Made by a program: the position numbers and the translations under genes. Shown here piece by piece: positions 3,743-9,014 of a stretch of 64,000 bases of DNA. The notes below the pieces were generated by a model. The model had not been told where the DNA came from, did no database searches, and saw nothing but the letters and a program-made list of their open reading frames with translations. Source of the DNA: a virus; the IMG/VR virus record IMGVR_UViG_3300042402_003388, positions 36,551 to 100,550 of that record. One strand, given 5' to 3'. Position 1 is the first letter of the stretch; each line of letters opens with the position of its first letter.

Positions 3743-3761
3743 AGTTAAATTTTAAATTTAG

Positions 3762-3841
3762 TATCAGAGGAGGGACTCGAACCCTCACGCCGTAGCATAT
3801 GCTCCTAAGGCATACGTGTCTACCAATTCCACCACTCTGAT
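3762..3841 (-). tRNA. tRNA-Leu(TAG)
   Basis: ATCAGAG/CTCTGAT acceptor stem, CT-TAG-GA loop, long variable arm, GTTCGAGTC. Confidence 0.93.
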
Positions 3842-4140: not shown

Positions 4141-4165
4141 TTCAAAGAACTATGGTACAAATGTA
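4141..4165 (-). promoter_or_regulatory. Bacteroidota -7 element (TAcaTTTG) followed by boxA (GTTCTTTGAA)
   Basis: Minus strand reads TACATTTG-taccata-GTTCTTTGAA directly before tRNA-Leu(TAA). Confidence 0.7.
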
Positions 4166-4180
4166 CGAAAGAAATTTCAA

Positions 4181-4678
4181 TTAATCAAATCCCATCGAAC
4201 TTTTATATTCAATCCACACACGTTCAATTGAATTATTTAGAACATCTGAGAATAAGGATGGTTCATATGGTTTTGCCCTCATATTCAAACCCGCTTCTTG
4301 TGGTGTTCTGTCTGCTTTGTATAAATTACACTTATGACAACAAGTTACCAAGTTACTCCAAGTATTCTTACCACCCTTTGATTTTGGTATAACGTGGTCT
4401 AACGTTAATTGTTTTGTTGAACCACAATAAACACATTCTCCATTATCTCTTCTGTAAATTCTATTTCTGTTAACCCTAATATTCCTAACTCTGTATTTTA
4501 CATACTTCAATAGACGAATGATTAATGGACGAACAAAATTTTGATAACCTGCATAGATAGGGTTGTCGGAACTCTTTAAGATTTCCGCTTTACCTTTAAA
4601 CACTAACTTAAAACCTCTTTGAGGTGAAGTTACGTTTATTGGGGTATAATCCGAATTTAATACTAATACTCTATCCAT
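4181..4678 (-). CDS. HNH endonuclease (McrA/HNH_5-like)
   Basis: RDNGECVYCG...LTLDHVIPKSKGG...NLVTCCHKCNLYK. Confidence 0.93.
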   Translation of the reverse strand: MDRVLVLNSDYTPINVTSPQRGFKLVFKGKAEILKSSDNPIYAGYQNFVRPLIIRLLKYVKYRVRNIRVNRNRIYRRDNGECVYCGSTKQLTLDHVIPKSKGGKNTWSNLVTCCHKCNLYKADRTPQEAGLNMRAKPYEPSLFSDVLNNSIERVWIEYKSSMGFD

Positions 4679-4713
4679 AACTGTGCAAATTTAATACATT
4701 TTTTTTATAAAAC

Positions 4714-4743
4714 AAAAAAAGGTCACAATTTCTTGTGACCTTT
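4714..4743 (-). terminator. attenuator terminator of leader 3
   Basis: AAAGGTCACAA-GAAA-TTGTGACCTTT plus U-tract; left arm can alternatively pair with GTGACCTT in the leader ORF (4797-4804). Confidence 0.85.
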
Positions 4744-4771
4744 CTTTTATACGTTTTTAGTTTAACTAATC

Positions 4772-4876
4772 TTATTTTTGTTTATCTAAACCGCGTAAGG
4801 TCACTATACCATTGCCACATAACGATGTGATAATGTTATCCTGTATCAAAAGACCTGTGTTGTTATACGTTTTCAT
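4772..4876 (-). CDS. putative leader peptide 3 (34 aa, MKTYNNTGLLIQDNIITSLCGNGIVTLRGLDKQK)
   Basis: Short ORF absent from the ORF track, TATTTAT motif upstream, overlaps antiterminator segment; Leu codons CTT, TTG, TTA x3. Confidence 0.65.
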   Translation of the reverse strand: MKTYNNTGLLIQDNIITSLCGNGIVTLRGLDKQK

Positions 4877-4908
4877 AAATTACGGTTTTCTTTCTTATAA
4901 ATATGTTC

Positions 4909-8918: not shown

Positions 8919-8947
8919 AACCCATCTCCAAAAGAGATGGGTTTTTT
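8919..8947 (+). terminator. attenuator terminator of leader 1
   Basis: AACCCATCTC-CAAAA-GAGATGGGTT-TTTT; CCATCTCCA (8922-8930) alternatively pairs with TGGAGATGG (8881-8889). Confidence 0.88.
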
Positions 8948-8967
8948 GTTTTTAGATTGTTAAACAT

Positions 8968-8998
8968 TTTGTTCTTTGAAATATTGGTTGTATCTTTG
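8968..8998 (+). promoter_or_regulatory. boxA (GTTCTTTGAA 8971-8980) overlapping a Bacteroidota promoter (TTTG-N19-TATCTTTG)
   Basis: Direct motif match; same boxA precedes five RNA-gene units. Confidence 0.7.
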
Positions 8999-9014
8999 TA
9001 AAAGATTTAAAAAT

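Follow-up and report, generated by a model that had tools for sequence, protein, structure and literature searches.

A conserved small open reading frame with its own terminator, and a predicted small RNA partner, ahead of an HNH endonuclease gene in a giant lake phage

What does a 34-codon open reading frame (ORF) followed by a strong terminator do directly ahead of the HNH endonuclease gene of a giant phage? The question is raised by leader 3, which lies on the minus strand of a 64,000-nucleotide stretch of viral DNA analysed here as a whole (the window). A first-pass annotation of this stretch had proposed that leader 3 gates the HNH gene, two tRNA-Leu genes and clpP, with leucine codons in the ORF as the possible sensor. 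Gene regulation in uncultured giant phages of Bacteroidota is still poorly understood.

The source record is a 100.5-kb IMG/VR virus entry with a completeness estimate of 33%. Relatives of the window phage reach 317–326 kb and have terminal repeats, and the window DNA is therefore that of a giant phage, a lake phage of a family of ~320-kb phages. It carries 28 tRNA genes (ARAGORN), and no close relative was found when the phage collection was searched at the DNA level. The features of the locus are collected in Table 1. Upstream of the unit lies a dehydrogenase-like ORF whose Pfam matches begin at position 66 of the NAD-binding-domain profile and which lacks the C-terminal UDP-binding domain. 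An N-terminal piece was looked for upstream of it and not found, and the same short form is also kept in L004 and L006. The solved structures nearest to the HNH nuclease domain are IscB/Cas9-type HNH domains and the small Geobacter HNH endonuclease 4H9D. The HNH gene is inherited in synteny across the phage family, not scattered in the fashion of homing endonucleases. Between these two genes, leader 3 is a predicted small transcription unit, made of a phage-type promoter motif, an ORF and a strong terminator, that stands before the conserved HNH gene.

Table 1. Features of the leader 3 locus and its surroundings (window positions unless another record is named).
Feature	Position	Strand	Basis
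Dehydrogenase-like ORF (UDP-glucose/GDP-mannose type), 274 aa	4909..5733	-	Pfam PF00984 (6e-23), PF03721 (3e-18)
ATATTTAT, phage promoter-like motif, 20 nt 5′ of the small-ORF ATG	4897..4904	-	Sequence; conserved before the unit in relatives
Small ORF (leader 3), 34 sense codons and stop; ATG 4876, TAA 4774..4772	4772..4876	-	Frame and dN/dS
21-nt target site of the predicted trans small RNA, codons 7-14 including CTT TTG	4837..4857	-	Perfect complement of G000:C1:26014-26034 (+)
Region 2, GTGACCTT, copy of the terminator 3′ arm, codons 25-27; putative antiterminator strand	4797..4804	-	Duplex energy, covariation
Intrinsic terminator, AAAGAAAGGTCACAA pairing with TTGTGACCTTTTTTT round a GAAA loop, then T tract	4709..4747	-	Fold, terminator scan
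Terminator 5′ arm core AAGGTCAC	4742..4735	-	Sequence
Terminator 3′ arm GTGACCTT	4726..4719	-	Sequence
Terminator T tract	4720..4709	-	Sequence
Predicted host (sigma-A) type HNH promoter: -33 TTTG 4716..4713, 19 nt, -7 box TAAATTTG 4693..4686	4686..4716	-	Conserved motif
HNH endonuclease gene, 165 aa	4181..4678	-	Pfam HNH_5 (1e-16), HNH (3e-13); PHROG 16726 (5e-41)
Predicted host-type tRNA-Leu promoter: TTTG 4189..4186, 20 nt, TACATTTG 4165..4158	4158..4189	-	Conserved motif pair
tRNA-Leu, anticodon UAA	4052..4138	-	ARAGORN
tRNA-Leu, anticodon UAG	3761..3841	-	ARAGORN
clpP, 224 aa	3068..3742	-	Pfam CLP_protease, 2.7e-58
Small-RNA-like unit, ~75 nt, outside the window	G000:C1:25983-26058	+	Motif, hairpin, terminator
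Terminator-tail/promoter overlaps	4709-4720 with 4686-4693; 8942-8953 with 8993-9000; L002:1537-1572		

The ORF had been described as holding a tandem CTT-TTG and three TTA codons, and all are present: CTT and TTG at 4852..4847 (codons 9 and 10) and TTA at codons 19, 27 and 30, for a total of 5 leucine codons in 34. It also follows the phage ATATTTAT motif, as had been noted. Seven of the 20 copies of this motif in the window lie 14–27 nt 5′ of the ATG of an ORF of at least 70 aa, and the distance in leader 3 falls inside this range, which is typical of the phage's genes. In relatives, the copy before the unit often has a TTTG ~20 nt upstream.

Coding evidence is clearest in the subclade, which comprises the window with L004, L006 with L162 and L164, L005 with L160 and L166, and L151. 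In these nine sequences the reading frame and the position of the stop codon are kept, and all indels are in-frame. The dN/dS ratio is 0.38–0.54 in frame 0, compared to 0.7–1.9, with 4–7 stops, in the other frames, and the peptide conserves the residues GLLxQD and TLRxLDKQ. Judged from these alignments, leader 3 is a genuine small ORF that is conserved along with its terminator and is probably translated. Such peptide-level conservation with dN/dS below 1 speaks for the main rival to any regulatory reading, namely that leader 3 is an ordinary small gene. Under this explanation the ORF would encode a functional micro-protein and have its own promoter and a constitutive terminator that also ends the dehydrogenase transcript. 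A small RNA described below would act on translation or stability of the mRNA within the coding region, and any complementarity between the ORF and the terminator would have little or no effect. This is a real possibility, if a somewhat doubtful one. Against it, some nucleotide blocks of the ORF (TTTAGATAAACAA) are invariant even at synonymous sites, and the peptide has no family match in Pfam or PHROGs.

The wider family gives a less uniform picture. In the major clade, 28 distinct elements keep the frame, with spacings of 71, 68, 65 and 59 nt that differ by multiples of 3, and a conserved peptide ending in RTINYC is retained. However, the ORF is lost or broken in L008/9/18, L011/14 and L047, where the nucleotide motifs remain, and in L016 and L022 the motif GTCTTTTGG is read in a different frame, as Ser-Phe-Gly. 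The blocks GTCTTTTGG, TATGAGAA and CGAACCATAAAC thus persist despite a broken ORF or, for GTCTTTTGG, a shifted reading frame, which counts against an ordinary small gene. Codon-position entropy climbs weakly from position 1 to position 3 (0.63, 0.74, 0.84), and the major-clade evidence that the ORF is coding appears mixed. When 22 major-clade leaders were run through RNAalifold, the terminator was the only conserved structure, and a riboswitch-type RNA was rejected for this reason. Rfam matches to the leader, to a major-clade leader and to the small RNA all stayed below threshold and were driven by the terminator.

The terminator of the unit is strong. A terminator scan called a 15-pair terminator at 4747..4714, and across the terminator alignment 97% of cells hold a pair; the L005 group carries the compensatory change described below here too. 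A 226-nt region folds better than its shuffles (z = -3.6), an excess that is mostly owed to the terminator. The dehydrogenase-like ORF is without a terminator of its own, and its transcripts would therefore also enter the leader terminator. This terminator is nevertheless not simply the end of the dehydrogenase gene, because in L005 it is kept together with the ORF and the HNH gene behind a different upstream gene.

It had also been claimed that a motif in the ORF pairs with a terminator arm. This was borne out. A copy of GTGACCTT lies in the ORF, and the best duplex between the leader and the terminator 5′ arm has an energy of -13.1 kcal/mol, which none of 300 shuffles reached (z = -4.4). The 8-bp helix joins 4804..4797 with 4742..4735 and is found at the same location in every subclade member. 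All six subclade sequences tested show the complementarity, with z between -4.4 and -2.1. Moreover, in 9/9 subclade sequences the ORF strand [G/C]T[G/A]ACCTT complements that sequence's own 5′ arm, AAGGT[C/T]A[C/T]. Over these nine sequences 98.6% of cells are paired, and one pair changes from GC to AU on both sides in three of them. The changes are linked in the L005 group, where the ORF has G→A, the 5′ arm C→T and the 3′ arm G→A, and the covariation of the putative antiterminator is a single evolutionary event. Region 2 further contains an ACC codon that is invariant, yet ACC makes up only 13% of the threonine codons of the phage. An arm copy with a compensatory change, kept in every subclade member by way of a minor threonine codon, speaks against an ordinary small gene. 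The proposed extension of the helix by TACG/CGTA fared less well: both stretches are present (TACG at 4797..4794, CGTA at 4753..4750), but they are reached across a 7-nt one-sided bulge, and the extension is missing in L151.

In leaders 1 and 2, which lie in the same window, small ORFs likewise hold copies of the terminator 3′ arms, GGAGATGG and AGTTCAG, and this shared device makes coincidence less likely for leader 3. In the subclade of the window phage, two RNA pairings of leader 3, this one and the pairing in trans described below, are under selection.

Outside the subclade, leader:arm complementarity in most major-clade and other elements is at chance level (z ~0). It is weak in L012/L024 (8 bp, p ~0.1), in L043 (p ~0.09), and in the L035 group and L066 (z ~-2.3). 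The switch, if real, would therefore be confined to the subclade. The major clade keeps its RTINYC peptide and its spacings in multiples of 3 with the antiterminator absent, as an ordinary small gene would.

Folding predictions place limits on how such a switch could work. When the RNA is folded only up to the terminator loop, the 2:3 helix is present in the minimum free energy structure in four lineages. Once the 3′ arm is added, full-length folds favour the terminator, whether or not the small-RNA site is masked, and masking leaves the predicted 2:3 and 3:4 pairs unaffected. That the terminator prevails in all full-length folds again suits an ordinary small gene. A further 1:2 pairing, AGGUC:GACCU (5 bp, with AGGUC over the leucine pair), occurs in the folds of the window, L006 and L151 and not in that of L005. 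Another helix, AAACCGU/GCGGUUU, would close the structure by joining the 5′ UTR to codons 28-30; it shows covariation in L006 and was dropped because it is broken in L005 and L151. Within the ORF, a hairpin at 4806-4838 (-) with the core CACAUCGUUAUGUG appears in all folds, with the same core in the window and L005 and different ones in L006 and L151. In these models it could act as a pause hairpin.

What is new at this locus is that the CTT-TTG stretch of the ORF is complementary to a separately encoded, predicted small RNA of ~75 nt. The unit that would encode it consists, on the plus strand, of ATATTTAT, a 5′ hairpin, a single-stranded linker and a 12-pair terminator. Its segment at G000:C1:26014-26034 (+) is a 21-nt perfect complement of the leader at 4837..4857 (G000:C1:41387-41407), ~15.3 kb away, which means that the RNA would act in trans and not from opposite its target. 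The leader is the sole match of the small RNA within the 100-kb record. G005 carries a homologue of the small RNA that is 91% identical, G006, the contig of L005, one that is 74% identical, and L222 a third. The motif, the 5′ hairpin (with a GU→AU change), the linker and the terminator are conserved over the four contigs. The tail of the terminator of the small-RNA unit (also at L002:1470-1545), together with a TATCTTTG box, forms the predicted promoter of the next gene.

The two partners appear to have changed together. The leader target TTGATAC in the window is matched by the small-RNA seed GTATCAA, the target TTAGTAC in L006 by GTACTAA in L222, and the target CTGGTAC in L005 by GTACCAG in G006. 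The longest uninterrupted complementarity between a leader and its own small RNA is 21, 18 and 12 nt in the three lineages, compared to at most 11 nt for cross pairs. All three variable positions (3/3) are compensated in trans across three lineages, one of which combines the L006 leader with the L222 small RNA from separate contigs of one sample that may not belong to one genome. The leader changes at the target site are synonymous or conservative and retain Leu-Leu-(Ile/Val)-Gln-Asp, which places the site under a double constraint, from coding and from pairing. Complete relatives (321 and 326 kb) were searched for an antisense partner of the major-clade motif GTCTTTTGG, and none was found: every CCAAAAGAC match fell in sequence that looks coding, and BLAST with the leaders and with the small RNA returned nothing above chance level. 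Compensatory changes in three lineages support the pairing of the leader with this predicted small RNA, whose expression is inferred.

Another reading is a pair of non-coding RNAs, in which the leader transcript of ~170 nt would serve as a small RNA or sponge for its 75-nt partner and would contain the ORF only incidentally. In its favour, the two units share a promoter motif and both end in a terminator. The major-clade motifs that outlast the ORF in L008/9/18, L011/14 and L047 agree with this. It is nonetheless very improbable given the coding signature of the subclade and the frame-preserving indels of the 28 distinct major-clade elements, and the terminator as the only conserved structure and the lack of an Rfam family count against it as well.

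Is the leader tuned to leucine? A leucine-sensing leader-peptide attenuator would respond when ribosomes stall at leucine codons, either because charged tRNA-Leu is lacking or because the phage tRNAs are, and the stall would open the terminator and induce HNH, the two tRNA-Leu genes and clpP. In a set of 50 long window ORFs, 8.1% of codons are for leucine, and the 5/34 of the window leader is not a significant excess (P = 0.14). The subclade ORFs contain 15–24% leucine, and the excess reaches P = 0.005 in L151 and P = 0.02 in L006, lineages that share their leucine positions by descent. Conservation of the leucine codons had been proposed as a check: the Leu-Leu pair is kept throughout the subclade by way of the synonymous codons TTG, TTA and CTG, as leucine sensing would require. 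The presence of tRNA-Leu behind HNH in the subclade and the 5-bp pairing of the Leu pair with region 2 in the window fold are also in line with leucine sensing.

The arrangement of the codons argues otherwise. Only two of the leucine codons are adjacent, and because such codons are found ahead of, within and behind the putative antiterminator strand, stalls would act in opposite directions. At Leu 27, inside region 2, or at Leu 30, a stalled ribosome would sit on region 2 and promote termination, and a stall at Leu 9 or 10 would do the opposite. The 1:2 pairing is gone in L005. The antiterminator is missing from L059 despite its tRNA-Leu, and tRNA-Leu is missing from many relatives that carry the unit. 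Nor does a leucine reading extend beyond the subclade, where some relatives read the conserved GTCTTTTGG in another frame (Ser-Phe-Gly in L016 and L022) or have no ORF. The tRNA-Leu and HNH genes, finally, have predicted promoters of their own. Leucine-specific sensing is accordingly not favoured as the reading of the codons, and a leucine attenuator is quite unlikely.

The genes that the unit accompanies were traced in a clpP-anchored search, which returned 80 related loci. The HNH gene is present in ~60 of these 80, at 55–95% identity and at a variable distance upstream of clpP. In most HNH-bearing loci the same order precedes its ATG: ATATTTAT, an ORF of 23–40 codons, a GC-rich terminator with a TTTTTTGTTTT tail, and TAnnTTTG. 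About one third of lineages are without the unit, and in some of them its place is taken by a tRNA gene or by a gene in divergent orientation. In L012/L024, L043 and L074 the position before HNH is occupied by unrelated-looking ORFs of 36–37 codons with a terminator. A tRNA-Leu gene lies behind HNH only in the subclade, in L012, where it is tRNA-Leu(UAA), and in L059, which lacks the antiterminator. Across the family, the unit therefore seems to travel with HNH rather than with tRNA-Leu or clpP, and tRNA-Leu as a gated target finds no support in most unit-bearing members of the family, which have none behind HNH. The wider family is mostly without leader:arm complementarity or an antisense partner, and the ancestral unit may thus be a plain small gene with a terminator.

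Gating in the strict sense is also at odds with the sequence between the terminator and its supposed targets. In Bacteroidota, the -7 box has the consensus TAnnTTTG at position -12 to -5 (PMC9723704). The -7 box TAAATTTG ends 7 nt before the HNH ATG, with a TTTG at -33 inside the terminator tail. The TAnnTTTG before HNH is invariant or conserved in near and distant relatives whose flanks vary, and a TTTG/TAnnTTTG pair directly before the first tRNA-Leu is conserved in L004, L006, L005 and L012. HNH and tRNA-Leu thus each appear to have a conserved sigma-A-type promoter downstream of the terminator. The design recurs: a TAnnTTTG promoter takes its -33 TTTG from the TTTTTTGTTTT tail of a terminator ~19–20 nt further upstream, and terminator and next promoter therefore overlap (Table 1). 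HNH and tRNA-Leu have such TTTG-N19/20-TAnnTTTG motifs of their own, and the gating of these genes and clpP by leader 3 is not supported. Predicted promoters for the downstream genes are, in addition, what an ordinary small gene would lead one to expect. Of the suggestion that leader 3 is a general translation-stress sensor that also induces ClpP, a response to general translation is kept in the reading preferred below; across the family, the unit goes with HNH.

Taken as a whole, these observations lead us to favour, tentatively, an attenuator-like regulated stop that would be set by general translation and an antisense RNA. In this proposal, if codons 25-27 are free of ribosomes while the polymerase makes the terminator, the antiterminator helix would form first. 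A fraction of polymerases would then continue into HNH, tRNA-Leu and clpP. The codons could be free of ribosomes when translation is slow or does not initiate, or when the small RNA is bound upstream; with a ribosome on region 2, the terminator would form. The sensor input would be general translation together with the antisense RNA, not leucine specifically, and read-through would supplement, not substitute for, transcription from the genes' own host-type promoters. Against the regulated stop, a local terminator of 15 pairs (~-14 kcal/mol or stronger) should quickly displace a long-range helix of 8 bp, and the antiterminator covariation counts as one event only.

A more elaborate form of the proposal has two inputs on one terminator, the occupancy of the ORF by ribosomes and a trans small RNA that acts as a roadblock or inducer at codons 7-14. 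These would time read-through from the phage-specific promoter into the block of HNH, tRNA-Leu and ClpP. This form is unlikely.

One locus thus joins a conserved ORF-terminator unit, an alternative pairing in cis and a small RNA with compensatory support from three lineages. If the regulated stop is true, the phage uses attenuation and an antisense RNA to time a block of nuclease, tRNA and protease genes. If it is untrue, the locus still holds a rare phage small-RNA/target pair backed by covariation. The idea of codon-matched attenuators is limited as well: leader 3 has the architecture of leaders 1 and 2 and not the codon match.

The leader peptides trpL, leuL, hisL and ilvL belong to ribosome-mediated transcription attenuators of amino-acid operons. 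Leader 3 resembles this type in having a short, probably translated ORF 5′ of an intrinsic terminator, a leader strand that can pair with the 5′ arm and so exclude the terminator, and, outside L005, a weak predicted upstream pairing that overlaps tandem leucine codons. It differs in having no run of regulatory codons, and its putative antiterminator strand falls within the ORF, 22 nt ahead of the stop, rather than after it. By simple footprint geometry, region 2 (4804..4797) would be out of reach of a ribosome waiting at the stop codon (4774..4772), and the arrangement is therefore unlike that of trpL. The antiterminator is also far weaker than the terminator, predicted promoters lie between the terminator and the supposedly regulated genes, and these are a phage nuclease, tRNAs and a protease instead of a biosynthetic operon.

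Antisense-driven transcription attenuation is exemplified by pT181 repC and by the countertranscripts of pIP501/pAMbeta1, and in satellite phage P4 the CI RNA controls elongation by pairing with the element's own nascent transcripts. As in these systems, the small RNA of the window phage has its own predicted promoter and terminator and is complementary to a leader with a terminator at its end. Unlike them, it is encoded 15 kb away and not opposite its target, and it would pair with ORF codons rather than with the strand that competes with the terminator. Folding predicts no effect on the terminator. We know of no described attenuator that combines a leader peptide with a trans-acting antisense RNA.

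The closest comparison is within the same phage. Like leaders 1 and 2, leader 3 has a small ORF that holds a copy of the terminator 3′ arm, followed by a TTTTTTGTTTT tail and a TAnnTTTG box. However, leaders 1 and 2 directly precede tRNA arrays, while leader 3 precedes a protein gene, is without a convincing codon match, and alone among the three has an antisense partner encoded in trans.
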